Below the pieces are notes generated by a model that did not search any database, was not told the origin of the DNA, and worked only from the letters and a program-made list of their open reading frames with translations. Made by a program: the position numbers and the translations under genes. A DNA stretch of 64,000 nucleotides, taken from the sequence record OR449013; one strand, written 5' to 3'. This document shows, one piece after another, positions 2,841 to 36,333 of this stretch; the stretch's first letter is position 1, and each line of letters starts with the position of its first letter. The stretch is from Escherichia phage Mangalyan.

Positions 2841-5800
2841 TATTCAACACTCTCCATCATAAGCTGGGTGTCTGTCAGTGCAGAGTTCCAAACTCTTATG
2901 TCCTTAATATGACCAAATAAGTGTCTTTCACCTGTCGCCGTTTGACCACCAATGCGGATGAAAGCGCCTCCTGCTAGGAATTCCCAAGAAGACTGCGTTT
3001 CCGTGCTCACCAGTCCGTTAGCAAAAGAGCAGGTTTTACCGTCATCTTTTATCCTGAACCCAATTTTCAATTTACGGGCTTTAGCCATCTCGTAAACACG
3101 TCTGTTTGACCCTCCAATATCACAGTATGGATAACCGTCCTTCGCAATATTTGTTGCAGAGCCAAACCCCATGATAAATGCAGCACCGGATTGATGACCC
3201 TCTGTATCAATAACCCTAGGGGCTGCGTTAGGAGCTTTGCCCCAGCCTCTCCAGTTGGCATCAACCGTAGCGGCGATAGTGAATGGTCTGGGCGCTAGGT
3301 TATCCGTCATTGGGAATTTACAAAGATCTGCCGCCCTGGTTACAGGTGAAGACCCTGTAGGGATAAACGAGGACTCACAAGATCCCAACTCAAACTGAGG
3401 TATTGCAACGTCAACCCAATCCCCTACGGCATGTTGAGAACTCTCCGGCGGGGCAATCTGGAACTGGCAACCGATATTCCTGTCAGAGGACACTGCCTCA
3501 AACGTAGCAACAACCCTTATCCAAGCAGGTCCGGCTGTTTGCCATCTCTCAGCTTTTACTTTAATTCTCCCCGCTGCAACACCTGTTGTTTTAACTTCAA
3601 GTGTTGACAGGTTAACATAAGCATCACCTTGAAATGTTGTGGTGGATCCGTCGTACATGTCGAATCTTATACGTAATCTCCGGTTCGCTTTACCTCCCCT
3701 TGCAATAATAGACCCAGTACAGAATTTCTCAGCACCTGTTACATCGGCACCTCTGGTGGCTGGAACTGTAGCAAGGTTTAACGCTGTTGTTTCCACACCG
3801 GATGCAGTGTTTACTGTAAATCTTGCACCTTTTGTGCCGTTGGTGTTTGTCACAGTACCACCAACAGTAATCTGTTGACTGGCTCCCCATTTACTAGGGT
3901 CTTCACTGTTAAGCATTAGGTTTGTCCTTTGCCCTTCAATAAGCAGACCATCTCTTTCAAAACGTGGTTGGTTTGCTTGTGCAACAGCCATAACACCACG
4001 CTTAGTGAAATAGGTTGCTGTAGAAGGTCTGGAGAAGACCATCTCACCTTCACCCAGTGCAGGTTTTAGGTTAGAGGTTAAAGGCAACCACAAGTCAGGC
4101 ATAACTGGAGCGGTGGTGTTTTCTGGGAAGCTTGTTCTCTTCCAAGGGCTCCAAGCCATTCCGCTGCCAAGGTTATTGTAATACCTTTCCCATGTTCCAC
4201 CAAGATACATTTTATATATCTGGATACAACCTGTTCCTTCGTTAGCGGAGTTTCTAAGAACGATCAGCGTACCAGCCATCTGCTGCCCTGGTGGGTAATT
4301 TCTTTCCGCTGTGGCGTTGGCATTTGCCTCTTGATGGTAAATCCCTTCACGATCTGCCTTGTAGTCGTTAAGGTCATTAGTTCCCAACCCTTGACCACGG
4401 TGCTGAATAACTTTGTTCCACGCTCTGTGGTTTCCCTGCTCTATGGAACGAGTGTACAGCTGATCTAAACGACCTGCCATCTGGAAAGCGTAGTTTCCAG
4501 AAAATGCCACAGACAACCCACCAACAACCATCGATCCTTCAGGTCCGTTGACATTGCCTGCCATTATTTTAGAAGGGTTGTTATTCCCGAACTGGTTGTT
4601 CCAGTCTGCACCTGTGTGGCATACAAAACCACCTGGTGCTGAGAAAGTACCATCCTTGTTGAAGTTGTAGAATCTATGAGCTGTGCCTACAACATCGCGA
4701 ACAATAACTTGACCCGCTTCCGGAGTAGATCTGAACTCTGCCTGACCTTTGAGACCAGCACCATTACCGCATTTAGAGGTAAACGTACCGTTAGTCAGAT
4801 CCTCTGTCCCATCGGATGCACACTGGAATCCTGCATTAGAGAATAACGCCTTTCTAGGACTGCCGTAGCACAAATAGTCAAGACCGTCTGCCCATAGCTC
4901 GACTTTTGGCATATTCATTTTGCTCATCACAGCATAGCGTTCAGCAGAACCTATATAGTGCCACTGTGTGCCGCCACCAGTGTAGAATCCTGAAGTACCT
5001 TTGAAGTCAACAATAGGTCTGGTATTGGTGTTGTTATCTCCAAGAATAGCAAGATTCAAATCTGCTGATTGAAGAGGTGCAACGAACTTAACCCCATCCT
5101 GATTGTTTGTTACAGAGCCGACTTGATAATCTTGCTCTCTGGTAAACACTTCGACAACATTTCTACTTGCGTATATGCTGACAGGGAAAGCACGAGCCTC
5201 TGCATAGAAAGCAACATACTCTTGTTTACCCCTTGTTGGAGCAACCATCCCAAGAAGTGCTTTTTCATTCTGGTAGAAATTTACTACCCCGTAGAAAGAG
5301 TCTCCCCTGTCCGTCCAGCCGCCAGTTCTATAGTGACACTGCAGGGTGGCACAGTTCATAGGGTCATTTCCAGATGAAGACCTGGTGACTATAGTAATAT
5401 CTGTACCTGTCGAATGGGCGTAATACGGATCTGTTCTAACGATGATTGGGTAGTATTTCCCATCTTCCATTCCTGCAGTTCTTGGCAGTGTTAAGAAGTC
5501 TTTTACACCTGCTGCTATAGGAACTTTGAACAGATTCTGAGCATCTGCTAAAGTTGTAGCCCCGGTGCCACCTGCGGCTTGAGGTAGAGGTTCCCACTTG
5601 GCCTTCCGGTTGTTATAAACACCCCATTCCAGAGTGCCGTTACCGGATTCGTCCATCTCACCATCCCAGATAACCATCTTGGCGGCTTTCTTGGACCCCC
5701 AGAAGCCTCTTTCTGCTCCTGAACTACGAATCCACTCTCCAAGTCCCCAGTTTGTCAGCTGACCAGTAAGATCCCCAACCTGCATGTATTTAGGACAGTC

Positions 5801-13393: not shown

Positions 13394-14278
13394 TTATTTC
13401 CCGTTAACTTTGTCGTAGTTTCCCTGCTCAGATGGGACTATGGTAGAAGGTCTTCCATATTCCTGATAATACCAATCCGCAGCCGATTGGGTAACACCGT
13501 TTTCATCTGTCCACATCATGGATTTGTATGGCTGCCACTCTTCTGCAGCATTTGTGGATGCAGTGTCTGCGAATGCTCCTGTGTCCCTCTTGTTACCTAC
13601 GTTACTACCATTCTTACAGTCGTTGACAGCACCTTTTTGTTGGGTCTTGCCTACTTTCTTAGGATTGCTGTATACAGTTGCATTAACAACCTTATTCAAG
13701 TAGAATGTGCGGAACTCTGTAAGTTCTACATCAAACACCATTGCAGCGCCTTCACCAACAGACTTGCTGGCAGAAAGACTGGTTATGATGTAGTTCTCAA
13801 GAAGTTTCTCCTCGGTAACCAAAGAAACCAACTGTCGCTTATTGATAATCTCAGTCAAAGCCTCCAATGCAGCGCCTGGTCGCATAGATGCTGCAGGGTT
13901 TTTAGAGTCAGTATTCCTATCAATGTAGTTTTGCTCATAAATTATATGTGGGGATGTATTTACCCTACCAGTAAAAGAAAATACACCATCTTTAATTACA
14001 GCGTGGTCTGACAGGGTAGATTTATCTTCCACCGCAAAATCAGTCTTATCAACAGAATGTTTGAAAGAGTAGTTCTCAATCTGATCGAAGATGATGGCAA
14101 GATCGTTGGTAAAGTTTTTACCCTTCATCTCCGTATTGCGACCACCATAGTTAAGACCGCTGACAAACATAGTGTACTTTACATCGCTTTCAGTTTGCTG
14201 CTCTGCCTTTTCAGCCTTTGGAGATTTAACCTCTTGAGGCTTGTACAGGTCTTTTTCATCAACTATATTGCTTGGCAT
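13394..14278 (-). CDS. hypothetical tail protein
   Basis: Track ORF 13394-14305; internal ATG at 14278 preferred because it follows a GGAGAGG SD. Confidence 0.4.
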   Translation of the reverse strand: MPSNIVDEKDLYKPQEVKSPKAEKAEQQTESDVKYTMFVSGLNYGGRNTEMKGKNFTNDLAIIFDQIENYSFKHSVDKTDFAVEDKSTLSDHAVIKDGVFSFTGRVNTSPHIIYEQNYIDRNTDSKNPAASMRPGAALEALTEIINKRQLVSLVTEEKLLENYIITSLSASKSVGEGAAMVFDVELTEFRTFYLNKVVNATVYSNPKKVGKTQQKGAVNDCKNGSNVGNKRDTGAFADTASTNAAEEWQPYKSMMWTDENGVTQSAADWYYQEYGRPSTIVPSEQGNYDKVNGK

Positions 14279-14382: not shown

Positions 14383-16719
14383 TTACCAAAGGTCGGTAGA
14401 CATGAAGTTGATATCTTTATTGTTCTCCCACTCAAGTTTTGCATCAAATATTTTGTTAAACTCACCCTCATCTATTGAAATCGTGATTTTCCCATCACTG
14501 ATCTCTAAAGGTAGCATTTCCATAGTCCTTAATTGAGAAGCAAAACCAGGGCCACCTGGCAACGGAAGAGTCCCTCCCGGTAAGGTGTCCAAAGGATTAA
14601 CAAATCCGTTACCTCCCGATATGATATCTTTGCGAATCATATCGCTGATAGTATCCAGCTGCTGATTTCTTTCACTTAGGGGGTTGTAACGGTCATTAAA
14701 TAATTCCCCGGCGCTTAGTATTGTACCGATAATGCCCAGCTTACCGAGCAGACCAACTTTGCCACCAGGTGTCTTGAGGCCACCTCCACCTTTTCCTGCC
14801 GGAGCTCCACCACCAGACCCTTCTGTAGTAGCGGCACCCGCTGCTCCAGCTGCACCCCTTAGAGAGTTAAGGAATTTAAAGGTTTTTACAAGCATGGATG
14901 CCATGACAAAACCTTTTGTTAGGGCGTTGACTACCAGCATGATGGCAGCAGCAAACCCTGCCCATTTAGCATAACTAAAGGTGTCATGAAGCTCTTCAGA
15001 ATATTCCTTCGTCTTAGCTGTTATGAATCCCCATTTAATCCCCCATTCAAGGAAAAACATGCGGATCTTGACTATAGTGTTGTTTAGTTCACCAACTACC
15101 CAGTTAAGACCTCTCACAAACCCGCTAACAAAATCACCAGAGGCATCCCACACAAATTGCAAAGTCTCACCTGTGCGGATCAGTGTATAATAGAACTCTG
15201 TTAGTTCGTCAGACCAACGGGTGAACAGTTTCTGACGAGTCAGTTCGATAAAGGTTTTCAGTCTGTTTTCTGCCAGCACGTTAGACTTCTGCATTCTTTC
15301 ATAACCAGCTGCAGATGCCTCGTTCATGTACTTAGCCACATACTTCATGATCTTGGCTGTTTTAACCTCACCTTTCTTCATCATGTCCATGAACTGATCC
15401 ATGGAGAGTTCAGAAAGACCAAAAGCCTCTTTGGTGGCCTTGATAAAAGGTTCGTATGCACCAGGCAATGCTTCAGCAAGTTGTTGCTTCAGTTCTTCGG
15501 ACATTACTTGCCCTTTACCGAGCATTTGCTGGATTGCCATAATACCGCGCTGGTATTTTACCTCATCGGCACCATAAGCAGCAGCATACTGGGAGTATGC
15601 AGAAAACAGCTCATGCACTTCCTGATTTGTCATCTGGTTTTTGGCGTTTACCGACATCTGGGCGTAACCTTGAAGACCAGATTTGAGATCAAAACCAAGA
15701 CGCATAGCCTCTTGCTGGACAAACGCAACCTCACTGTTGGCTTTGTTTGGATCTCCAGTAACAGCAGTAAGAGCAGCACTTGCCCCCTCCATCATGTGAC
15801 CGGATCTGTTAACCGCAGCAAATCCAGAAAAAGCTGTATACGCAGCTGTTGCATTAATAACAGATCTACGTAAGTCTCTCATGGCATCGCCTAGTGTAAG
15901 CGTTTGGCTGGTGGCGCTTTTAAACCCAGACTGCAGCGCTGACAGGTGGGCGTTAAAGGTTGACTTTTTCATCTCCCCGCGAGCAAACCTAGACTCTAAC
16001 TCTGAGTATCCTGGCAAGCTTCTACGGAATCCGGCCCCATACTTGGCAGAAAGTCTTATCGCGGAGTTGTAGAGGTGGGTTCTTCTTGCCTCACGATCCG
16101 ACATAAGCCTATTATCCATACCAGCTTTACTGTCTCTTCTTAGCTGTCTATGATAACGATTCATAGCGGCTGTCTGAGCTTTCACAAGGTTAGGGTCGGA
16201 AGCCACACCACCCATATTAGGGTTACCGGGAATATATTTGAAAGCTTTGGCATTAGCCAAAACTCTTGCCTTAGGTGCCTTATAACCGCCGTAAGATACT
16301 GGTGCAGATTTGGCAGCCTTTTTGGCCTCTTTAGCTTGCTGCTGGTAGAACTTACGCATCCTAGCCATTTCTGGATTTTTAGCGGTAAGATTACCTACAG
16401 CTTGTTTACGTCTCGCATTCTCCCTACGTTCTATTGCAGCCCTTACTGCAGCCTCTTTCTTGGCCTGTGCTACGCTCTCCCTGTGCAGCTTGGCATTTGC
16501 CTGAGATTGCTGTCTGGCAACCCGCTGCATTGTCTGCTGGGTTTTAACAGCTACCGCCTGCCATCTGCTCATGGGGTTGGCTGAGTTAAAATCTTCGCCC
16601 AGTTTCCTGAACTCCCTCCCAATACTGCGAATTTTCTCTACAGCTTTTTTGTAGGAGGAGTTCTCTATCTCAAAGCCAATCTTGTTGACTGTTGTGGCAA
16701 CTATTTTGTTTGTAGCCAT
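14383..16719 (-). CDS. tail tape measure protein (778 aa)
   Basis: Long ORF directly 3' of the chaperone pair; Ala/Gln/Lys-rich N-terminal helical region and Gly-rich segment; GAGGAA SD. Confidence 0.7.
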   Translation of the reverse strand: MATNKIVATTVNKIGFEIENSSYKKAVEKIRSIGREFRKLGEDFNSANPMSRWQAVAVKTQQTMQRVARQQSQANAKLHRESVAQAKKEAAVRAAIERRENARRKQAVGNLTAKNPEMARMRKFYQQQAKEAKKAAKSAPVSYGGYKAPKARVLANAKAFKYIPGNPNMGGVASDPNLVKAQTAAMNRYHRQLRRDSKAGMDNRLMSDREARRTHLYNSAIRLSAKYGAGFRRSLPGYSELESRFARGEMKKSTFNAHLSALQSGFKSATSQTLTLGDAMRDLRRSVINATAAYTAFSGFAAVNRSGHMMEGASAALTAVTGDPNKANSEVAFVQQEAMRLGFDLKSGLQGYAQMSVNAKNQMTNQEVHELFSAYSQYAAAYGADEVKYQRGIMAIQQMLGKGQVMSEELKQQLAEALPGAYEPFIKATKEAFGLSELSMDQFMDMMKKGEVKTAKIMKYVAKYMNEASAAGYERMQKSNVLAENRLKTFIELTRQKLFTRWSDELTEFYYTLIRTGETLQFVWDASGDFVSGFVRGLNWVVGELNNTIVKIRMFFLEWGIKWGFITAKTKEYSEELHDTFSYAKWAGFAAAIMLVVNALTKGFVMASMLVKTFKFLNSLRGAAGAAGAATTEGSGGGAPAGKGGGGLKTPGGKVGLLGKLGIIGTILSAGELFNDRYNPLSERNQQLDTISDMIRKDIISGGNGFVNPLDTLPGGTLPLPGGPGFASQLRTMEMLPLEISDGKITISIDEGEFNKIFDAKLEWENNKDINFMSTDLW

Positions 16720-20594: not shown

Positions 20595-21065
20595 TTACTG
20601 TCCGATTTTAAAGGTTGCAGATTCAAGCAGCACATCGTAATGCCGCATAGCCTCGTTGAAGCCCTTTTCTTGTGCCCACTGCTCACTAACAGTAGGATTA
20701 CTAAACTGACCAGCCTCAATAACAAACTGGATAGCTTTGGCCCCTGTGTCCCCCATCTGCTTAAGAATAGCCTCTGCACTTGATCCTCTAGCCATAGCTC
20801 TCAACAATTTTTCTGTCAAGGTCTGTAGTTGAGTGCTGTGAAATGCAAAGGCTGTCTCCATGAAATTGCGAACAGGCAGCCCGTTCCAACCGAAGTTGTG
20901 AATGGCTGCCAATGTTGCCATATTTAAGCCTGACGGGTGAGGTTCGTCATAAAAGCCGTAGGTTATTGTTTTACTTTCAAGTCTCACAAGTTCTTTGTAG
21001 AAGCTATCTAAACGCTTTAGGTTGAACCTTGTTTGACATTTAACCTTTAGCATTATATCCCTCAC
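20595..21065 (-). CDS. hypothetical head-tail protein
   Basis: 156-aa ORF. Confidence 0.4.
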   Translation of the reverse strand: MRDIMLKVKCQTRFNLKRLDSFYKELVRLESKTITYGFYDEPHPSGLNMATLAAIHNFGWNGLPVRNFMETAFAFHSTQLQTLTEKLLRAMARGSSAEAILKQMGDTGAKAIQFVIEAGQFSNPTVSEQWAQEKGFNEAMRHYDVLLESATFKIGQ

Positions 21066-27257: not shown

Positions 27258-28379
27258 TTAGATAAAACGCTTAAACATAGAAGGTGATGAGATTGATGGA
27301 ATCACACAAGGAAGTGCTACCTCCTCTTTCTCCAGGAAATTAATCGCAGAAGCTACACAGTCGGCCCAGTCGTCTTTTCTGTTAAATGTTGATCTTTCCC
27401 CGTTGAATTTTTCAAGTTCAGTCAGAAATGCTTCCAAAGTATCAGGATGGAAACTGGATTTTACAATCCTCACCATTCCTTGTTGGGCAAGATTGGCAAA
27501 AGGTGAGAACCTTGTCAGTTTAGATTTGTTGGAAGGCATTGGGTCTTCTTCAACCCTAAACCCTTCGGCGAGCAAGGATCTGGAGGAGGTTAAGAACTCA
27601 CTCTTACCTGCCTGACCGGGGTCCACAGAGAATACGATTATACAATCATCACCATCAAACTGCGCCTGTTTCCTGATGATCACATCTCGTTCACCAGCCT
27701 TTTTACAAAACTTACCTTCCAGACCTGTGGAATACCTCCCGTCATCCACGTTCTCAGGACAATAATCACCGGACAGGTAATAAAAGCCGTCACTATCTTT
27801 ACTTACCTTAACACTGGCGGTAAAGTCAGGAAATTTATTACCGGAAGTTCTCTCGGTTCCTGCCTTATCCCATGCTCTGCAAGATACTGATCCAAGGGGT
27901 ACTCTATCGGCATCACGAAGGAAAGATCTTTGAAAATAGTTTGCACCCTCAGGCTTTGCAAACCAGTTACCATGGAGAAGCTGAGCTTTTTCCAGCTCTG
28001 GTAGACCTTCGAGGAAAGCAAGGTATTCTGGGTTGTCTCTCAAACAGACAGGATTATCGAATATTGTTGCGCCTATGAACGAGAATGACAACGGTCTTGG
28101 CTTGATCTCTACACCCAGTCCGTTAACCGTGGTGTATTTCTCTATCAACTCTTCCTTAGAGTCTCCCCAAATAAATTCACCGTCGCGTCGGATAAAATAT
28201 CTTTTCTTACCGCATTTCTCAGGATCTGGATACCCTTCATCGTCCAACCACCATCTAACCAGTTTGGCAAGCATGTGTTCTGAATCGGGGTTACAGCTGA
28301 TAACCATTCTTGATGGATACTTTGACTGAGATCGCAGACGAGACATCAGATAGTCTATCTGCTCCCATTCGAATTGTGT
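27258..28379 (-). CDS. terminase large subunit, exon 2 (nuclease domain)
   Basis: Frame continues terminase reading after the predicted intron; Asp-rich nuclease-domain motifs. Exon 5' boundary (28379) is predicted, not proven. Confidence 0.75.
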   Translation of the reverse strand, partial: TQFEWEQIDYLMSRLRSQSKYPSRMVISCNPDSEHMLAKLVRWWLDDEGYPDPEKCGKKRYFIRRDGEFIWGDSKEELIEKYTTVNGLGVEIKPRPLSFSFIGATIFDNPVCLRDNPEYLAFLEGLPELEKAQLLHGNWFAKPEGANYFQRSFLRDADRVPLGSVSCRAWDKAGTERTSGNKFPDFTASVKVSKDSDGFYYLSGDYCPENVDDGRYSTGLEGKFCKKAGERDVIIRKQAQFDGDDCIIVFSVDPGQAGKSEFLTSSRSLLAEGFRVEEDPMPSNKSKLTRFSPFANLAQQGMVRIVKSSFHPDTLEAFLTELEKFNGERSTFNRKDDWADCVASAINFLEKEEVALPCVIPSISSPSMFKRFI

Positions 28380-28698
28380 CGTTTATGTTCGGGCAAGGTC
28401 GCTAGTCTTGCCCCGCCATTTTCAGGCAGCTGCATGTCTCCATGCAGACCAGACTATATCTTATAAGCGACAAAAACCGCTTACCCTCCCGTTTCGAATC
28501 GCTTGATTCTACGTCTCTCGACTAGTCGTTGAACGTTCATCCTCTCGGATGCTTCGCTGCGGATTATCTAAATTAACACACTGTTACCATACCTTCGATC
28601 TCTCTTCGAAGCCTCTATAATGTTACCATGACAGGTTGGTGGTGTCAATAATAAAGATTTCCCCGCAATTAGGGAGGTTTTACGAGAGCTACAAATTA
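28380..28698 (-). ncRNA. group I intron (ORF-less) in terminase large subunit gene
   Basis: Minus-strand P (AATTGCGGGGAAA, 28656-28671), Q (AATCCGCAGC, 28551-28565), R (GTTCAACGACTAGTC, 28520-28534), S (AAGATATAGTCTGG, 28449-28462); P1 pairing exon GAGGGU with intron GCUCUC; in-frame TAA right after exon 1. Confidence 0.8.
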
Positions 28699-29124
28699 AC
28701 CCTCATCGAAGCAAACCATGGTGTACTCAAGCCCTTGGTGGTTAAGCTTATCTTGTACATACTCCATGTGGCAGTATTTTACAACAGCCCCCTTTTTGCT
28801 TCTATCCCACTTGCCAGTGTTCGGATCAAACCGTGGAAAAATGAACTTATGATCCTTCTCTCTGAACTTTGGCTTAATGTTTTCAGGCAGATCACTATAA
28901 ATAGCTACTGCTTTAGGCCATAGTCCACCCTCACCTTCCAACTGTGGGGTTGTTCTTCGGAACATAACCACAGAGCTGTGGGGGTCATCAATAATTTTAA
29001 GCGGCATCAACTGCAAGAGGAACGACTTGCCAGACCCAGCTGCACCGCCGATTACCAAAATATCTGCATCGTTTTCGAGGATCATCTTCTGCTTTTCAGA
29101 ACACGGTCCGTAAATCTTAGACAT
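28699..29124 (-). CDS. terminase large subunit, exon 1 (ATPase domain)
   Basis: Walker A GGAAGSGKS and Walker B VCFDEG; ORF terminates in intron. Confidence 0.8.
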
Positions 29125-30227: not shown

Positions 30228-30304
30228 TGGTCTCCACGGAGTGATTCGAACACTCGACCTCCTGATCCCAAATCAGGCGCTCTACCAAGCTGAGCTACGC
30301 GGAG
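30228..30304 (-). tRNA. tRNA-Pro (anticodon TGG)
   Basis: Cloverleaf folded by hand on minus strand: acceptor CTCCGCG/CGTGGAG, anticodon loop TTTGGGA, T-loop GTTCGAATC, encoded CCA. Confidence 0.8.
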
Positions 30305-30315
30305 TATTTACTATT

Positions 30316-30390
30316 TGGTGGCCCTGGGTGGAATTGAACCACCGTCTGGCGATTATGAGTCGCTTGCTTGAACCTTCCAGCTACAGGGCC
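30316..30390 (-). tRNA. tRNA-Met/fMet/Ile2 (anticodon CAT)
   Basis: Acceptor GGCCCTG/CAGGGCC, anticodon loop CTCATAA, T-loop TTCAATT, CCA encoded. Confidence 0.8.
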
Positions 30391-30391
30391 T

Positions 30392-30467
30392 TGGTGCTAA
30401 TGGCAGGACTTGAACCTGCAACCTATTGATTACAAATCAATTGCACTACCAATTGTGCTACATCAGC
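30392..30467 (-). tRNA. tRNA-Thr (anticodon TGT)
   Basis: Acceptor GCTGATG/CATTAGC, anticodon stem ATTGA/TCAAT with loop TTTGTAA, T-loop TTCAAGT, CCA encoded. Confidence 0.8.
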
Positions 30468-30472
30468 AAAAA

Positions 30473-30571
30473 GGTGCTAGGTGATGGAATCGAACCATCT
30501 ATGTATTCAACGACTACCTCGTCTATTTTCAGGATTAAAAATCCTCGCCCTTGCCAAAGGGCTTACCTAGC
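30473..30571 (-). ncRNA. atypical 99-nt tRNA-like gene (Lys-type UUU anticodon loop, ~30-nt variable region)
   Basis: Acceptor GCTAGGT/ACCTAGC, D-arm GCCC-TTTGGCAA-GGGC, anticodon loop TTTTTAA, canonical T-arm GATGG-TTCGATT-CCATC, but ~30 nt lie between anticodon stem and T-stem. Confidence 0.45.
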
Positions 30572-30669
30572 TCAGTATGTTGACCATGTTGCTAGTCGGC
30601 GATGACGACTGTAACATTTGATAATCCGGTTCTGCTTCCGGCTTTCGCTTAATTACAAGGTCAACAATG

Positions 30670-30760
30670 TGGCGGAGAGTAATGGAATCGAACCATCATC
30701 GAGTCATCCTCAATGGGACGGTTTTCAAGACCGCTTGAGCACCATTGCTCCCTACTCTCC
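30670..30760 (-). tRNA. tRNA-Ser (anticodon TGA), class II
   Basis: Acceptor GGAGAGT/ACTCTCC, anticodon loop CTTGAAA, long variable arm, T-loop GGTTCGATTCC, CCA encoded. Confidence 0.8.
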
Positions 30761-30874
30761 TTTATAAATTATACTGATAATGACACTGATTTTCGAGCAG
30801 TTAGTGACTAGTATAAACGACGATAAATATCAATGCCATTATCTGTATTATTTATGCATCTAAAAATATAAATT

Positions 30875-30961
30875 TGGTGGGGAGTGGTGGAGTCGAACCA
30901 CCCGAGTCGCAATGACAATAGATTTACAGTCTACACCGCTACCTCTACGGGATAACTCCCC
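30875..30961 (-). tRNA. tRNA-Tyr (anticodon GTA), class II
   Basis: Acceptor GGGGAGT/ACTCCCC, anticodon stem GTAGA/TCTAT with loop CTGTAAA, long variable arm, T-loop GGTTCGACTCC. Confidence 0.8.
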
Positions 30962-30965
30962 AATT

Positions 30966-31040
30966 TGGCACCCCGTACTGGACTCGAACCAGTGTCAACG
31001 GCTTAGAAGGCCGCTGCTTTATCCACTAAGCTAACAGGGC
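30966..31040 (-). tRNA. tRNA-Arg (anticodon TCT)
   Basis: Acceptor GCCCTGT/ACGGGGT, anticodon stem GCGGC/GCCGT with loop CTTCTAA, T-loop GGTTCGAGTCC. Confidence 0.8.
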
Positions 31041-31503: not shown

Positions 31504-31532
31504 ATTTTATCATAGCAAATACTGATTGTCAA
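31504..31532 (-). promoter_or_regulatory. sigma70-like promoter (TTGACA-17-TAAAAT)
   Basis: Minus-strand TTGACA (31532-31527) and TAAAAT (31509-31504) upstream of the 31475 gene. Confidence 0.5.
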
Positions 31533-31534
31533 GT

Positions 31535-31760
31535 TCGCCGCAGGGTGGTATTCCCTGCGACTTGTCCAGCGTCCTGGACCAGCAAGACCAAACAAGTGGG
31601 TTACCAGAGGCCTATTACCCGCGCTTCGGCTCGACCTTGTTACAGGTTGGCTGGGGTCACATCGTCATGTGCTGGCTGCCCCTACCATTTTAAGTGTGGT
31701 GCACTATCAAGCCCTCTAAGGGGAACTCAGCCTTCTCCGAACCCTGTTTCAAAGCATCCG
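31535..31760. other. GC-rich ORF-free island A (candidate structured RNA or regulatory element)
   Basis: Visibly GC-rich versus flanks; hairpins such as GCAGGG-TGGTATT-CCCTGC; only shadow ORFs. Confidence 0.3.
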
Positions 31761-32140: not shown

Positions 32141-32329
32141 TCAACAGATTCCGGCCTTATCCTTCCTGTCTGCGTATTCTTTAATCGCAACCTCATCTGC
32201 ATTAGTGACCAGGTCTTCAAAGTAACTCTCAAGCTCCTCGTCAATGTCAGGAGACCAGCTCTTTTTCCTGTCAGTGTGAATTGCAGACTTGTTGAACTTA
32301 TTACAGTTCTTTGCTACCGGGTTGTTCAT
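32141..32329 (-). CDS. hypothetical protein
   Basis: 62-aa ORF, coupled to upstream gene. Confidence 0.3.
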   Translation of the reverse strand: MNNPVAKNCNKFNKSAIHTDRKKSWSPDIDEELESYFEDLVTNADEVAIKEYADRKDKAGIC

Positions 32330-32339
32330 TAAGCGCTCC

Positions 32340-32918
32340 TCAGCGTTCGTAGTAGATTTTATTTAACATTACCTCATCTTTTGCAGAAAGAATACCGAGA
32401 TATGCATCACCGAATCTACCTGCAACAACCTCTGCATGATACATCACTTCGTTAATATCGTCAAGAGTGATAACTGGATGACCGTATCTCTCTGAGTATT
32501 GTCTCAGAGTGCGATGTAGAGAGTCATCATCATAGGCAGACTTTTTAATATCACAAACACGACGAATAGCCTTGATGTCGAAAAACCCTGTACGATACCA
32601 ACCAAGAAAAAGGTTTCGTGCAGTGTCAACATCCACATCAATACCATCAAGAACCTTATCTACAAGATAGCTGTCATCCTTTGGACCTGCTTCCTTAGTG
32701 CGAATGTAGTTGCCATCTTTTCCAGGTGACAGCTCCTTCTCATCACCAACCTGCATGCCATCATTTGGCGGTGTTAACCACTTATCCGGATGCTTACGAT
32801 CACGAGCGTTAGAATGATTACGCTGGAAACCGGGCTTCCACTTGAAAGTTTTCTCCATCTGTTCTTCATTCTGATAACGTTTTGCAATCTTTTCACGGTC
32901 ATCTTTGCGTGAACCCAT
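32340..32918 (-). CDS. hypothetical protein
   Basis: 192-aa ORF with GAGGAGG SD. Confidence 0.45.
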   Translation of the reverse strand: MGSRKDDREKIAKRYQNEEQMEKTFKWKPGFQRNHSNARDRKHPDKWLTPPNDGMQVGDEKELSPGKDGNYIRTKEAGPKDDSYLVDKVLDGIDVDVDTARNLFLGWYRTGFFDIKAIRRVCDIKKSAYDDDSLHRTLRQYSERYGHPVITLDDINEVMYHAEVVAGRFGDAYLGILSAKDEVMLNKIYYER

Positions 32919-33039
32919 AGCTGCCTCCTCTTCAAGTTATAGAAAAACTCACTGTATCGCTTTGTAACGAGCTTTTCTATCAAACTGGTGCGATTGCATT
33001 ACCTGGTATAGTTTATATAGCTGTGGAGCGATTTAGGGG

Positions 33040-33290
33040 CCTTCTTGTCAGTTTCCACACATAAACTTCATCCAAGCTCGCGCGGGAGACTCTCAACCGA
33101 CTCCTTACGGCGCTGGCAAGCTTTCGTCGGTGGTCCACATCAGTGCTCGGCCTTTGGCCTGCGCTATAGCTTCGCTCCCACACATGTTAACAGACCTGCA
33201 TGTGTGCACTTCTGTTATTGTGTGCACCAAGGAGGCCCGGCATCTCGCCCCTCGTAGGCGAGTGCCAATGAAGGGCCGACACTGCCCATA
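33040..33290. other. GC-rich ORF-free island B (candidate structured RNA or regulatory element)
   Basis: Visibly GC-rich versus the adjacent AT-rich segment; several hairpins (e.g. CTCGCC-CCTCGTA-GGCGAG at ~33244-33262); only a low-complexity shadow ORF. Confidence 0.3.
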
Positions 33291-33300
33291 GTAAGTAATA

Positions 33301-33420
33301 AATTTAAAACATGGTACTTAGGATCTAGTATATTCTACATAAGTTAAGTATATGTACTTAGTACCATAAGTACTAGATCTTTTATTTTTTTATTATTTAG
33401 TTATTTTAGTTATATTCTTT
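33301..33420. promoter_or_regulatory. AT-rich segment with inverted repeats (candidate DNA unwinding element or promoter region)
   Basis: Inverted repeat GATCTAGTA (33322-33330) / TACTAGATC (33371-33379), repeated GTACTTAG motifs, poly-T/A tracts. Confidence 0.4.
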
Positions 33421-33423
33421 ATG

Positions 33424-33505
33424 TGTCCGTATCACGGACAGTTAGTGTCCGTATTACGGGCAGATGTGTCCGCGTGACGGACAGTAGTGTCCGTATCACG
33501 GACAG
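33424..33505. repeat. four tandem 17-bp palindromes (TGTCCGT-N3-ACGGACA) at 21-22-bp spacing
   Basis: Copies at 33424-33440, 33446-33462, 33467-33483, 33489-33505 (first and fourth identical); a degenerate fifth follows. Confidence 0.75.
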
Positions 33506-33579
33506 TTAATAGTATCCGTTCCATGGCGAACATAAAACATACGAATCCTTATAGTATAGATATTTAAGTTTTTACTGGT

Positions 33580-33930
33580 CTAACCAGTTGTTGACATCCG
33601 AATAACTTCTTCTGGTGGCAAAACTTTGGAAAATGTGCATCTTTTACCTCTCCCTTGTGTGGATGTTTCAACCACTCCTGCACATTCTAAAGTTTTAACG
33701 CACGCTGCTGCTTTTGTTTTCTTTATCCCAACATCTGCTGCAATTTTCCTTGTGCTTGGTGTGAAGCGTGAATTTCCTCCAAGCTTATACCAGTTGTGCA
33801 GGTAGCAGTATACGATCTTGTCATACAAGTCAAGAACAACAACCTCCCCAGTTGTGTCATTCAAAACTTTTGACATAGATAGTATTTCAAGGGGGACTTT
33901 AAGATATAGCAGCTTATCCCCATCTTTCAT
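33580..33930 (-). CDS. hypothetical DNA-binding protein (candidate binder of the adjacent palindromic repeats)
   Basis: 116-aa ORF with AGGAG SD; helix-turn-helix-like segment TPSTRKIAADVGIKKTKAAACVKTLECAGVV; repeats lie ~75 bp 3' of its stop. Binding is inference. Confidence 0.4.
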   Translation of the reverse strand: MKDGDKLLYLKVPLEILSMSKVLNDTTGEVVVLDLYDKIVYCYLHNWYKLGGNSRFTPSTRKIAADVGIKKTKAAACVKTLECAGVVETSTQGRGKRCTFSKVLPPEEVIRMSTTG

Positions 33931-33977
33931 ATCTCCTGATTCTCCTTGTGTGGCAATTTTCTTTAAAATAGCAGGGA

Positions 33978-34532
33978 TTACTCCCTACTGTCAATATCAA
34001 AACTCATTGCAATACGGTATGCCTCCTCTAATGGTAAGAGTCTCCCCCACACATCCCAACCGACATCAAGCTGCCTGCCAAACAACTGTTGTGTGGTTCC
34101 GTGAGCATGACCGAACAGTTGGACTGATCCGTGAGGCTTTCTGTTCCACTTTGCAAACTGGTAATGGCTCATACAGATCAAATTCTTGTTGTGGCGAAGC
34201 TCGTAATAATCTACAACCTCATGACCGAACTCTTTCATAATTCTGACAGTCGTCCTTGTGTCATGGTTGCCACGAACAAGAATAATATGTCCGTTCAACA
34301 TATTTAGAATATCTGGAAGTAAGTTGTTGATATTCTTATCATTAGTGCACGCAATATCTCCCAAGTGGAACACAGTGTCTGCAGGTGACACAACAGAGTT
34401 CCACTTGGCGATGATTCCCGCATTCATACTGTCAAGATTGTGATCATACTGAGATCTGTGTTTTTGACATGAATCAAACTCCATGACCCGCTGATGGAGA
34501 AAGTGTGTGTCGCTTGTTACAAAGTATTTCAT
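33978..34532 (-). CDS. calcineurin-like metallophosphoesterase (putative polynucleotide 3'-phosphatase)
   Basis: ATG at 34532 with GAGGA SD (track ORF starts upstream); motifs SDTHF, GDI, GNHD; starts 7 nt after the kinase stop. Confidence 0.6.
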   Translation of the reverse strand: MKYFVTSDTHFLHQRVMEFDSCQKHRSQYDHNLDSMNAGIIAKWNSVVSPADTVFHLGDIACTNDKNINNLLPDILNMLNGHIILVRGNHDTRTTVRIMKEFGHEVVDYYELRHNKNLICMSHYQFAKWNRKPHGSVQLFGHAHGTTQQLFGRQLDVGWDVWGRLLPLEEAYRIAMSFDIDSRE

Positions 34533-34539
34533 ACATTCC

Positions 34540-34950
34540 TCATTTAAGTTTAATGCAGTTTTTAAGCTGGCGTTCCATACGATCCACAACCTTGTCTGGA
34601 ACATCATGAATGCTTTTATTACCGTGGCGGTTTTCAACCACGATCACGGTATAACTATACCCATGACTGATTGCCATGTCAACATATTCCTGCACATGTT
34701 TTTCTTTTGTAAACGTATTACTTACCACGATACGGTCGTATCCCATACGCATCATATCTTCTACGTTATCTTTGCACCATTTTGCTGCGAGTGTTACTTT
34801 ACTTGCATCCCAGTTGTAATTGCCGTCATCGTCATACCAGAACATGTCGTTCTCAAAATGTGGATACAGACCCTCTAAAGATAGCGCATTTGCCAGTGTT
34901 GATTTGCCAGACCCTGGTAGACCACGCACGATATATAGCATTTTAGACAT
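34540..34950 (-). CDS. polynucleotide 5'-kinase-like P-loop protein
   Basis: ATG at 34950 with GGAGGG SD; P-loop GLPGSGKST resembles the T4 Pnk kinase domain. Confidence 0.6.
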   Translation of the reverse strand: MSKMLYIVRGLPGSGKSTLANALSLEGLYPHFENDMFWYDDDGNYNWDASKVTLAAKWCKDNVEDMMRMGYDRIVVSNTFTKEKHVQEYVDMAISHGYSYTVIVVENRHGNKSIHDVPDKVVDRMERQLKNCIKLK

Positions 34951-34978
34951 AGTGACCCTCCGTTTTAATTTCAACGGT

Positions 34979-35007
34979 AGTATACCTGACTGTTTTGTTA
35001 ATTTCAA
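34979..35007 (-). promoter_or_regulatory. sigma70-like promoter (TTGAAA-17-TATACT) for kinase/phosphatase operon
   Basis: Minus-strand elements in the divergent intergenic region. Confidence 0.45.
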
Positions 35008-35071
35008 GTGTTGACACTAGGTTATTTGTGTGGCAGGATAGACTGACAAAATGACAAATGAGGAACGTATA

Positions 35072-35986
35072 ATGAAGTATTTTAATGCAGACGACCTAGT
35101 TGACAAAGGTCTTGTAACCAGTAGGTATTACCCAGATCTCGGGCTAAAGATCTATAAATATGCCAGAAAAGTATTCTACAACAATCTGTGGCATTTGTCT
35201 CCGCGTTTACTGGAGTGCCGAGGTATTGTTGTTGGCAATGAGGGGAATGTTGTGGCATGGCCTTTCACAAAAGTATTCAACTTAGGAGAAAACTCCACCA
35301 ACCTACCGGACAGTAAACTTGTTACTGCGGTAGAGAAAAAGAACGGATTCCTCGGTGTGGTATCATCTCATAAAGGTGACCTATTGTTCTCAACAACCGG
35401 GTCTCTTGATTCTCCATATTGTAACCTTGCAAAGGAAACCATCCAAGAGCAATGTGGTAATTTAGATCTTATCAAGAAGGTTATGGGCAATGAAAACATG
35501 ACATTCATGTTTGAAATTTGTCACCCTTCAGATCCGCATATTGTTCAAGAAGACCATGGCGCATATTTGATAGGTTGCAGATATAATGATTCTGGAATAA
35601 TGCTACCAGAAGCAGCTTTAGATGGGATTGCCAAATACCTTGGTGCAAAACGTCCTCACACTGTGCGTGAAATTCCGTTCAGCTATGCAAAAGAGTTAGC
35701 TGCAGAAACAAGAGGTGAAGGATATATGATTCGTAAGCCTTACTACCCTTATGATCTGCAGTTGAAGATCAAGTCTCCATACTATCTGGCACGAAAGGCC
35801 GTAATGAGGGGTAAAGCTTGGAAGATTTGGGATGATGATATCTTTAAACGTGTTGACGAAGAGTTTTACGGCATGGTAAACTTCATTCGTAACAACTACA
35901 CAGAGGATGTATGGAACTGCCTCCTGGAGCAGGAACGCCGTGAGATACTTGACTGCTATTTCCACAACGAGGACTATATGCAATGA
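35072..35986 (+). CDS. putative RNA ligase (nucleotidyltransferase)
   Basis: Motif I EKKNGF (K-x-N-G), motif IV EGYMIR, motif V LKIKSP; second ATG 35072 preferred (GAGG SD) over track start 35051. Confidence 0.55.
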   Translation: MKYFNADDLVDKGLVTSRYYPDLGLKIYKYARKVFYNNLWHLSPRLLECRGIVVGNEGNVVAWPFTKVFNLGENSTNLPDSKLVTAVEKKNGFLGVVSSHKGDLLFSTTGSLDSPYCNLAKETIQEQCGNLDLIKKVMGNENMTFMFEICHPSDPHIVQEDHGAYLIGCRYNDSGIMLPEAALDGIAKYLGAKRPHTVREIPFSYAKELAAETRGEGYMIRKPYYPYDLQLKIKSPYYLARKAVMRGKAWKIWDDDIFKRVDEEFYGMVNFIRNNYTEDVWNCLLEQERREILDCYFHNEDYMQ

Positions 35987-36333
35987 AGAAGTTGATTGTG
36001 TGGCTGGATGACTTGAGAGATCCGTCAAATTACGGGCTCCAAGACGCTGTTTGGCTAAAGAATTCCTCCGAGTTTATAGATTTTATTAACGATAATAGAA
36101 AGCTCTACAGACGCGTTTCTGAGTGGCACATGGACAACGACCTTGGAGAGTTGTTCGAAGGGTACGATTGCCTATCTATGTTGGAGGAAAAATTTGTATT
36201 TGGTAAGCCCCCTGTAGTTGACAACGTGAAGATTTTCGTGCATACTTCTAACCCATCAGCGGCTCGTAAATTCATGCTTGCAGCTGACTCGTTTAAAAAG
36301 TTTGGAATAGAGATTAAACAAAACATCTACTGA
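35983..36333 (+). CDS. hypothetical protein coupled to RNA ligase and Sir2-like genes
   Basis: 116-aa ORF whose ATG overlaps the ligase stop. Confidence 0.45.
   Translation: MKKLIVWLDDLRDPSNYGLQDAVWLKNSSEFIDFINDNRKLYRRVSEWHMDNDLGELFEGYDCLSMLEEKFVFGKPPVVDNVKIFVHTSNPSAARKFMLAADSFKKFGIEIKQNIY

Follow-up and report, generated by a model that had tools for sequence, protein, structure and literature searches.

A conserved hairpin array beside an origin-like locus of rV5-like phages, shared in part with small plasmids of Escherichia coli

Introduction

What does a compact GC-rich block that seems to encode no protein do in the genome of a virulent coliphage? Such a block was noticed at 33040-33290 of the 64,000 nucleotides of Escherichia phage Mangalyan analyzed here (the window), and a first-pass annotation, made from the letters alone, proposed that it was a structured noncoding RNA or a recombination or regulatory site. 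The window comes from an rV5-like myovirus (Vequintavirus), and the island is carried by 118/118 Vequintavirus records. Annotation of the island in these relatives is either blank or consists of short hypothetical ORFs placed over it.

Composition and Coding Potential

The island is compositionally distinct, as had been stated: G+C is 56.6% across 33040-33290 in comparison with 43.6% for the whole window, and the sliding G+C peaks at 0.52-0.57 over 33000-33300 and drops to 0.25 at 33300-33449. Homology places the left edge at ~33020 and the right edge at 33280-33283, the latter coinciding with the end of similarity to a divergent relative, and the island thus delimited (33020-33283) has a G+C of 57%. 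It lies, again as first described, between the side of the 192-aa gene and an AT-rich region with repeats (Table 1). Region 32900-33600 matches 118 phage records, all rV5-like, at 88-100% identity. The closest of these, at 99.9-100%, include MG065635.1 and carry the label "Campylobacter phage." Their genomes are nevertheless those of ordinary rV5-like coliphages, and the host label looks doubtful.

The lack of coding potential reported at first pass held up. Plus-strand ORFs of the island contain stop codons in most relatives. A small protein could be sought in a 56-aa minus-strand ORF, which corresponds to ORF78 of rV5, is annotated as hypothetical in several records, and is open in 12 of the 13 phages compared. 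That ORF has a GTG start and an internal stop in the divergent phage, its variable columns fall at codon positions 1/2/3 as 13/20/15, with position 2 the most variable and no codon-position bias, and the plasmids described below keep the M1 hairpin without it. Lacking a coding signature, the island can hardly be a protein gene, and we rejected a coding origin for it.

No known RNA family was recognized. At the gathering score, the Rfam covariance search that the first-pass annotation had proposed matched no family in 33000-33300, and with the E limit relaxed to 10 it returned only noise there, such as rli43 with 21 bits against a threshold of 100. ARAGORN reported no tRNA or tmRNA in the island, with tRNAs found only at 30228-31040. 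An antitermination RNA of the nut/put type was rejected, as reading of 33000-33300 revealed no boxA (CGCTCTTA-like) sequence and no Rfam nut/put model matched. Compared with dinucleotide shuffles, the excess of folding was modest on both strands, with z scores of -2.4 (plus strand) and -2.1 (minus strand) and 5-6 of 200 shuffles folding equally well. The main support for the several hairpins seen at first pass comes from compensatory changes in relatives.

The genes around the island, from 35007 down to the tRNAs, are all on the minus strand. The 192-aa protein encoded on its left has no Pfam match, and its PHROG match is a family of unknown function. Homologues are few, and a 50%-identical relative is found in a tight operon without any island. 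Its AlphaFold model was unfit for a fold search because the pLDDT was 49.6. Both proteins flanking the island are confined to the same 118-119 phage records.

Several other elements of this part of the genome are worth recording. A GC-rich (0.52-0.56), ORF-free stretch at 31530-31760, presumably the "island A" of the first-pass annotation, is located between two small minus-strand genes; it is 92% conserved in the divergent phage and has no sequence in common with the plasmids. A group I intron at 28430-28708 on the minus strand (Rfam, 83.8 bits) is near, and probably inside, a minus-strand protein-coding gene. A tRNA-like gene at 30473-30571, also on the minus strand, is unusually long (97-99 nt) and is assigned a four-base anticodon by ARAGORN; its Rfam tRNA score is just 37.5 bits, and relatives annotate it as tRNA-Lys or tRNA-OTHER.

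Table 1. Positions of the island, its parts, and related features (window coordinates unless a plasmid or contig is named)
Feature	Positions	Strand	Basis or remark
Counterparts of plasmid tail proteins	13592-14149, 15424-16377, 20625-20966	-	all minus strand
tRNA cluster	30228-31040		left of 192-aa gene; ARAGORN
192-aa gene, function unassigned	32340-32918	-	left neighbor of island
Possible extended -10 promoter TGGTATAGT	33004-33012	+	read from sequence; weak; reads rightwards into island
Leader motif GATTTAGGGGCC	33030-33041	+	alignments; plasmid arrays have CATTTAGGGG[G/C]C
TCCACACA, first copy of punctuation motif	33054-33061	+	alignments
M1 core hairpin	33072-33143	+	covariance model R1, 97 bits; ends in TCCACAT
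M1 lower helix	33088-33091 with 33132-33135	+	
M1 upper helix	33096-33101 with 33126-33131	+	
M1 invariant 24-nt loop	33102-33125	+	
Hairpin b	33142-33165	+	AGTGC..GGCC-TTT-GGCC..GCGCT; read from sequence and fold
CCCACACA punctuation motif, exact copy	33177-33184	+	
Long hairpin c	33181-33224	+	inverted repeat I4, fold
M6, 3' hairpin	33234-33277	+	outer helix GGCCC/GGGCC, inner 10-bp helix with one bulge, loop CCTCGTA
AT-rich stretch, presumed DNA-unwinding element	33290-33420		~130 nt; G+C 0.25-0.32; inverted repeats I8, I9
GATCTTTTATTTT	33376-33388		inside AT-rich stretch
Four iterons, 21-22 bp direct repeats	33423-33508	+	family D1, spacing 22/21/21
116-aa winged-helix protein, presumed iteron-binding initiator	33580-33930	-	Pfam, PHROG matches
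RNA-repair-type cluster (phosphoesterase, polynucleotide kinase, RNA ligase 1-like)	33978-35986		right of presumed origin region
CCACAC, minus-strand copies	33657, 33948, 34091, 35028, 35355, 35998	-	inside genes of both orientations
CCACAC switch spans	window 33055-36000; L299 7690-9200; L305 3800-8400		switch at AT-rich stretch and iterons
GGGAGACTCT copies	33084-33093	+	
	5297-5306, 28158-28167, 34037-34046	-	all three inside minus-strand ORFs

Structure of the Array

Read on the plus strand, the island consists of hairpins in a row, with the motif (C/T)CCACA(CA) as punctuation (Table 1). The possible promoter in front of it, TGGTATAGT, resembles the TggTAaAAtA "late" motif reported for rV5 (PMC3606486); it is absent as a conserved site in two relatives (L213 and L006) and was missed by a sigma-70 scan. 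The leader motif (TTTAGRGG) is not enriched elsewhere in the window. Hairpin b includes one U.G pair on the plus strand and is without counterpart in the plasmids. Hairpin c is shorter in rV5, Pr121LW, and MaxTheCat, which have lost 18 nt located between two TGTGTGCAC repeats, and in L006 one A-U pair of this hairpin has become C-G by changes on both sides, as read from the alignment. Conservation past M6 extends to 33283. A consensus fold of the whole island was uninformative for either strand.

Compensatory Changes

The clearest changes are those of M1. Its upper stem reads ACCGAC/GTCGGT in the phages and GCTGCC/GGCAGC in the plasmids, three stem pairs thus being changed on both sides, and the 24-nt loop is invariant, as is the 5' stretch GCGCGGGAGACTCT. 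Of the cells of the M1 helix, 92% are paired, none of 500 shuffles reached the observed score, and sliding the partner by 1-3 columns left only 11-61% paired. In the lower helix, which was added by RNAalifold, the pair 33089/33134 is seen as AU, GU, and GC. For M6, 99% of the cells are paired, and two G-C pairs of the phages are U-A in plasmid L004, one of them counted by the tool and the other found by eye. The hairpins of plasmid module M2 show three two-sided changes between L299 and L303, as read from alignments. Helices kept through two-sided changes, our test for a structured element, were thus found in M1 (three pairs), M6 (two pairs), and plasmid M2 (three pairs).

These patterns support the island being a structured noncoding element, folded as RNA or as single-stranded DNA. 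The conservation in related phage genomes that the first-pass annotation had asked about is complete, the island being present in 118/118. That part of the initial proposal stands, with stems maintained via two-sided changes and loops invariant. RNA is one candidate form of the element: wobble pairs are split between the strands, the plasmid copies end in plus-strand terminator-like hairpins, and a strand flip of CCACAC, described below, suggests a role at the DNA level. The same data bear on the idea that the island is a functionless GC-rich remnant, or a set of selfish palindromes, derived from a plasmid-like element and tolerated by the phage. The foreign composition (57% vs. 44% G+C), the longer and more varied arrays of the plasmids, and the 18-nt deletion in one hairpin of some phages would all suit such a remnant. 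Its presence in 118/118 genomes at 88-100% identity, its survival of a swap of the neighboring cassette, and the compensatory stem changes around an invariant 24-nt loop make this very improbable.

M1 has a narrow distribution. Its covariance model, R1, found a single copy in the window, in each plasmid, and in each Vequintavirus locus searched, and none in 16 more distant phage loci located via their RNA ligase. A scan for an 18-mer of the M1 loop across one genome per species and metagenomes gave mostly chance matches in GC-rich genomes and added just four phage contigs and two plasmid-like contigs, and a 14-mer scan of viral contigs gave chance matches only. The 10-mer GGGAGACTCT from the 5' part of M1 has four exact copies in comparison with 0.14 expected, with no one-mismatch copies. 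We gave no weight to this excess because the copy at 34037 is lost in the divergent phage.

Small Plasmids Sharing M1

Parts of the island match, at ~85% identity, circular E. coli plasmids of roughly 13.5 kb (~13.3-13.9 kb). Among 5,426 complete E. coli genomes, 7 contain such an element, in each case as a plasmid, and further examples come from two metagenome contigs. A host origin of the island was rejected, as the 5,426 genomes contained no chromosomal match and only the plasmids were hit. The set consists of L004 (NZ_CP020521.1), L299 (NZ_CP035869.1), L298, L300, L302-L304, L206, L226, and L005, the last being a 39.6-kb trimer. The 15-17 annotated genes include a major capsid protein, a tape-measure protein, a baseplate protein, and several helix-turn-helix proteins, one of them a lambda-O-like Rep; neither terminase nor portal is among the annotated genes. 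Three plasmid proteins, namely the tape measure, the baseplate protein, and a second protein of the tail region, have counterparts encoded in the window, with identities of 39-55% (Table 1). Because the capsid, tape-measure, and baseplate genes are related to the phage's own, the plasmids are probably satellites, and they would form an undescribed family that depends on rV5-like phages as helpers. Our literature search found no paper describing the plasmids and no satellite of rV5-like phages.

The plasmid arrays are built like that of the phages but are modular, the hairpin modules being shuffled like cassettes. A leader and M1 are followed by varying modules M2-M5, each ending in CCCACACA, and then by a hairpin and TTTCATTTGTGGG. 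That last hairpin is a plus-strand terminator according to the scan, and a second terminator-like hairpin comes after it. All plasmid arrays but one end in such a strong plus-strand terminator-like hairpin, the exception being L004, the one plasmid type in which M6 occurs and where it stands in that place. Three plasmids start instead with another module, M1', which is built along the same lines and matches no phage record and no viral contig. The order and orientation also agree with the phage, with the array followed by a short AT-rich stretch and the plasmid's own iterons and with an O-like Rep; at least four iteron types are found beside the same array among the plasmids, and in L004 the array is ~540 nt from the iterons.

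M1 and a 52-nt element are the sole two noncoding stretches shared by plasmids and phages, and both are common to the plasmids and Vequintavirus genomes only. The 52-nt element (10646-10697 in L299; 2501-2552 in L301, phage naam, MN850630.1) forms three small hairpins; the final one is of the C(UUCG)G type and has a T run behind it. In the phage, it is ~41 kb to the right of the island, outside the window, in a ~2.5-kb region devoid of ORFs, where CCCACACA is also abundant and about six TGTTTACA repeats are found. This region may be a second origin or a pac region.

The sharing of M1 could also stem from packaging, M1 being the pac site of the helper that the plasmids use. Vequintavirus-type genomes have been described as circularly permuted or headful-packaged (PMC3606486, PMC8407724, PMC13211470), and because of headful packaging and the absence of an annotated terminase gene, the plasmids would need the pac site of their helper. 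M1 is one of only two shared noncoding candidates, and the 39.6-kb trimer is what packaging of concatemers could give. Small-terminase subunits, on the other hand, normally read double-stranded repeats, which gives no reason for two-sided stem changes, and the island is placed by iterons in a region of tRNA and nucleic acid metabolism genes, away from the packaging genes and with no terminase gene adjoining, whereas a pac site is usually in or near the small-terminase gene. The 52-nt element is at least an equal pac candidate because it is located in the 2.5-kb ORF-free region. On balance, we consider a pac function of the array improbable.

Origin-Like Context

The sequence to the right of the island has the layout of an iteron-type (lambda-like) origin, for which at least three direct repeats of ~20 bp are expected: four such repeats, an AT-rich stretch, and an adjacent initiator gene are all present. 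Within the AT-rich stretch, GATCTTTTATTTT fits the E. coli oriC 13-mer consensus, GATCTnTTnTTTT, and each iteron holds the dyad GTCCGT..ACGGAC. The 116-aa protein matches Pfam HTH_36 with E 2e-5 and 24.5 bits, just under the curated cut-off of 25, and PHROG 12838, "replication initiation protein," with E 5e-80; PHROGs 8102 and 428 match more weakly, and RefSeq also names it "replication initiation protein." We infer that the locus is a replication origin and that the array forms its structured noncoding half. Skew analysis did not define an origin for rV5, which encodes a family A DNA polymerase and a T7-gp4-like primase-helicase (PMC3606486). The initial suggestion of a recombination site found no support in the island, and the origin-like context had been missed.

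A divergent Vequintavirus contig, L305, separates the array from its neighbors. The region corresponding to 32326-33280, including the island, is 83% identical; homology then ends at 33280 and resumes at 33968. Between these points, L305 has a different AT-rich stretch, different repeats, and an initiator of only 28% identity, the initiator and iterons having been replaced together and the island kept. This swap and the four or more iteron types of the plasmids suggest that the array works beside whichever initiator and iterons are present. Across phages and plasmids, it is always found on the same side of the iterons and in the same orientation.

Strand and Molecular Form

If the array acts as RNA, G-U pairs may tell which strand is read. 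The lower helix of M1 favors the plus strand, with G.U at 33089/33134 in 7 of the 18 aligned phages and an invariant U.G at 33091/33132, as do the G.U pair of hairpin b and another within module M3 of L304. The minus strand is favored by three T-to-C changes, seen in L006, Aya, and SYGMH1, that give A.C on the plus strand and G.U on the minus, and by C(UUCG)G loops that plasmid modules M0 and M2 form when read on the minus strand. Several loops of the array are C-GNA-G triloops, either C-GAA-G or C-GTA-G, and these two, being very stable in DNA, would favor DNA. Overall, we would place ~50% on plus-strand RNA as the active form, 35% on DNA, and 15% on minus-strand RNA.

Read-through of a long minus-strand operon across the island is probable, as the neighboring genes are all on that strand and the promoters listed for rV5 include none between P081 and P075 (PMC3606486). 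The array might then be a segment of the operon transcript, serving as a processing site, stabilizer, or attenuator between the initiator and 192-aa genes, and both the C(UUCG)G loops of M0 and M2 and the three variants giving G.U on the minus strand would fit this. In the plasmids, though, a terminator stands ~1.5 kb ahead of the array in the path of minus-strand transcripts from the closest upstream genes, and the next genes are separated from the array by a strong leftward promoter, so that the array is outside any operon there. The invariant U.G of M1 would be an A.C mismatch on the minus strand, and the invariant loop shared with the plasmids would be left unexplained. We therefore give little credence to an operon segment.

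Signals of a small-RNA gene differ between the two genomes. In the phage, we found just the nonconserved extended -10 and no canonical terminator directly after M6; in the plasmids, the array is followed by two plus-strand terminator-like hairpins, and a promoter-like site scoring 9/12 is located ~270 nt upstream. No convincing antisense targets were found for the M1 loop, the M6 loop, or the leader, with M1-loop complements no longer than 11 nt in the window and 9 nt in the plasmid. These data bear on a free-standing plus-strand small RNA acting in trans as a sponge or regulator, its CCCACACA linkers and M1 loop being presented to a protein or to target RNAs. The satellites would then encode their own version to tap or disturb helper regulation, and the proximity to the origin would be incidental, reflecting the clustering of control regions. 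The terminator-like ends of the plasmid arrays, the cassette-like shuffling of modules, the upstream promoter-like site, and the G.U pairs of the lower M1 helix all agree with such an RNA. No conserved target was found for it, CCCACACA and its complement are not enriched across the whole window, the phage array has no canonical terminator directly after M6, and the strand flip of CCACAC at the iterons is not expected of an RNA gene. We regard a trans-acting RNA as unlikely.

The CCACAC motif is found on the plus strand to the left of the iterons and on the minus strand to the right, in the phage, in L305, and in five plasmids, with the switch at the AT-rich stretch and iterons (Table 1). Enrichment to the right of the iterons is modest, with 6 copies in 2.4 kb in comparison with ~1.1 expected. 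The pattern is suggestive of a DNA-level role tied to the direction of replication, and with this polarity the complement, rich in G and T, would be in the lagging-strand template at each of the two forks that depart from the iterons. On templates of this kind, the primase of T7 synthesizes primers composed of A and C only. The pattern is a lead rather than a result.

Discussion

The reading that we favor, with a probability of roughly 45%, is that the array is an accessory element of the origin that acts as a folded single strand, either as a transcript or as unwound DNA, and that M1 serves as a helper-specific handle. The proposed layout consists of the hairpin array, the AT-rich unwinding stretch, four iterons, and the initiator gene. 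The array would act as a plus-strand transcript running toward the AT-rich stretch or as DNA after that stretch opens. M1, with its invariant loop and changeable stem, would be a site recognized and bound by a phage-encoded replication factor, candidate readers being the T7-gp4-like primase-helicase and the family A polymerase. Satellites with their own iterons and Rep would carry M1 in the same place so that the replication machinery of the helper works on them too. Several observations speak against an origin accessory: the plus-strand promoter is weak and lost in two relatives, the array of L004 is ~540 nt from the iterons, and M1' is found in three plasmids without a known phage match. The plasmid terminators between the array and the iterons also fit a self-contained RNA gene better than a primer.

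A broader proposal is conceivable, with the odds against it as a whole. Undescribed plasmid-borne satellites, with capsid, tape-measure, and baseplate genes of their own, may parasitize virulent rV5-like coliphages via a mimicked origin hairpin, M1, acting as RNA or single-stranded DNA, and arrays of hairpins plus CCCACACA may represent a new modular class of replisome-capturing elements in which interchangeable M1 and M1' modules set helper specificity.

The locus offers a concrete candidate origin for rV5-like phages, and it is the island that brings to light a group of small plasmids in E. coli, the probable satellites of a virulent myovirus. A changing stem around a fixed loop, in helper and parasite alike, marks a probable recognition element and gives a handle for finding its phage-encoded reader. 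As rV5-like phages are used against pathogenic E. coli as candidates for therapy and biocontrol, any satellites exploiting or disturbing them would matter in practice.

The array is absent from every RNA library searched, and we found no paper treating it in the literature. Comparison with known systems is most informative for replication origins. The oric of phage G4 and ssiA and ssiB of RSF1010, which are read by the RepB' primase, are single-strand initiation signals at origins. These, too, combine GC-rich hairpins with origin iterons and an AT-rich stretch, and a specific primase reads the folded single strand, the pairing of the stem and certain unpaired bases being what matters. The array differs from them in its size of ~260 nt (up to ~370 nt in plasmids), its modular build, and its 8-nt motif, and there is no sequence similarity; recognition of the array by a primase is putative, its position and hairpins being in keeping with such a signal.

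Transcript-dependent origins include the T7 primary origin, where promoters are followed by an AT-rich stretch, ColE1 with its RNA II, and the R-loop origins of T4. The likeness is a possible promoter reading through a structured segment into an AT-rich stretch. Those origins are without iterons or an initiator protein. The present promoter is weak, and the plasmids have terminator-like hairpins before the AT-rich stretch. The replisome is of the same type as that of T7, with a family A polymerase and a gp4-like primase-helicase (PMC3606486). With the lambda origin and its O protein, the locus shares four iterons with an internal dyad, an adjacent AT-rich stretch, and an O-like winged-helix initiator. 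The lambda origin is inside the O gene and without a 260-nt hairpin array, and the 116-aa initiator is without the C-terminal domain of O, with no P-like loader identified.

Other parallels concern parasitism and regulation. P4 shares the cos site of P2, and PLE aims at the replication of ICP1; in both, as in the putative satellites here, a small element without most phage functions carries a short noncoding piece matched to its helper. PLE would resemble the plasmids further in having its own initiator and iterons and in parasitizing a virulent myovirus with a family A polymerase. The piece shared here, in contrast, is a hairpin kept by compensatory change and not a cos site, and the plasmids are free and have their own capsid, tape-measure, and baseplate genes. 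Sponge RNAs such as CsrB/RsmZ and CrcZ likewise repeat a short motif between or on stable hairpins, with a varying number of units. The motif of the array is CCCACACA rather than GGA or a CA-rich Hfq/Crc site, and the strand switch at the iterons is at the level of DNA. By analogy, the array appears nearest in kind to single-strand initiation signals and transcript-dependent origins. In comparison with those kinds, its novelty would consist of a modular, motif-punctuated build and of being shared, with compensatory change, by a virulent phage and plasmid-like parasites.
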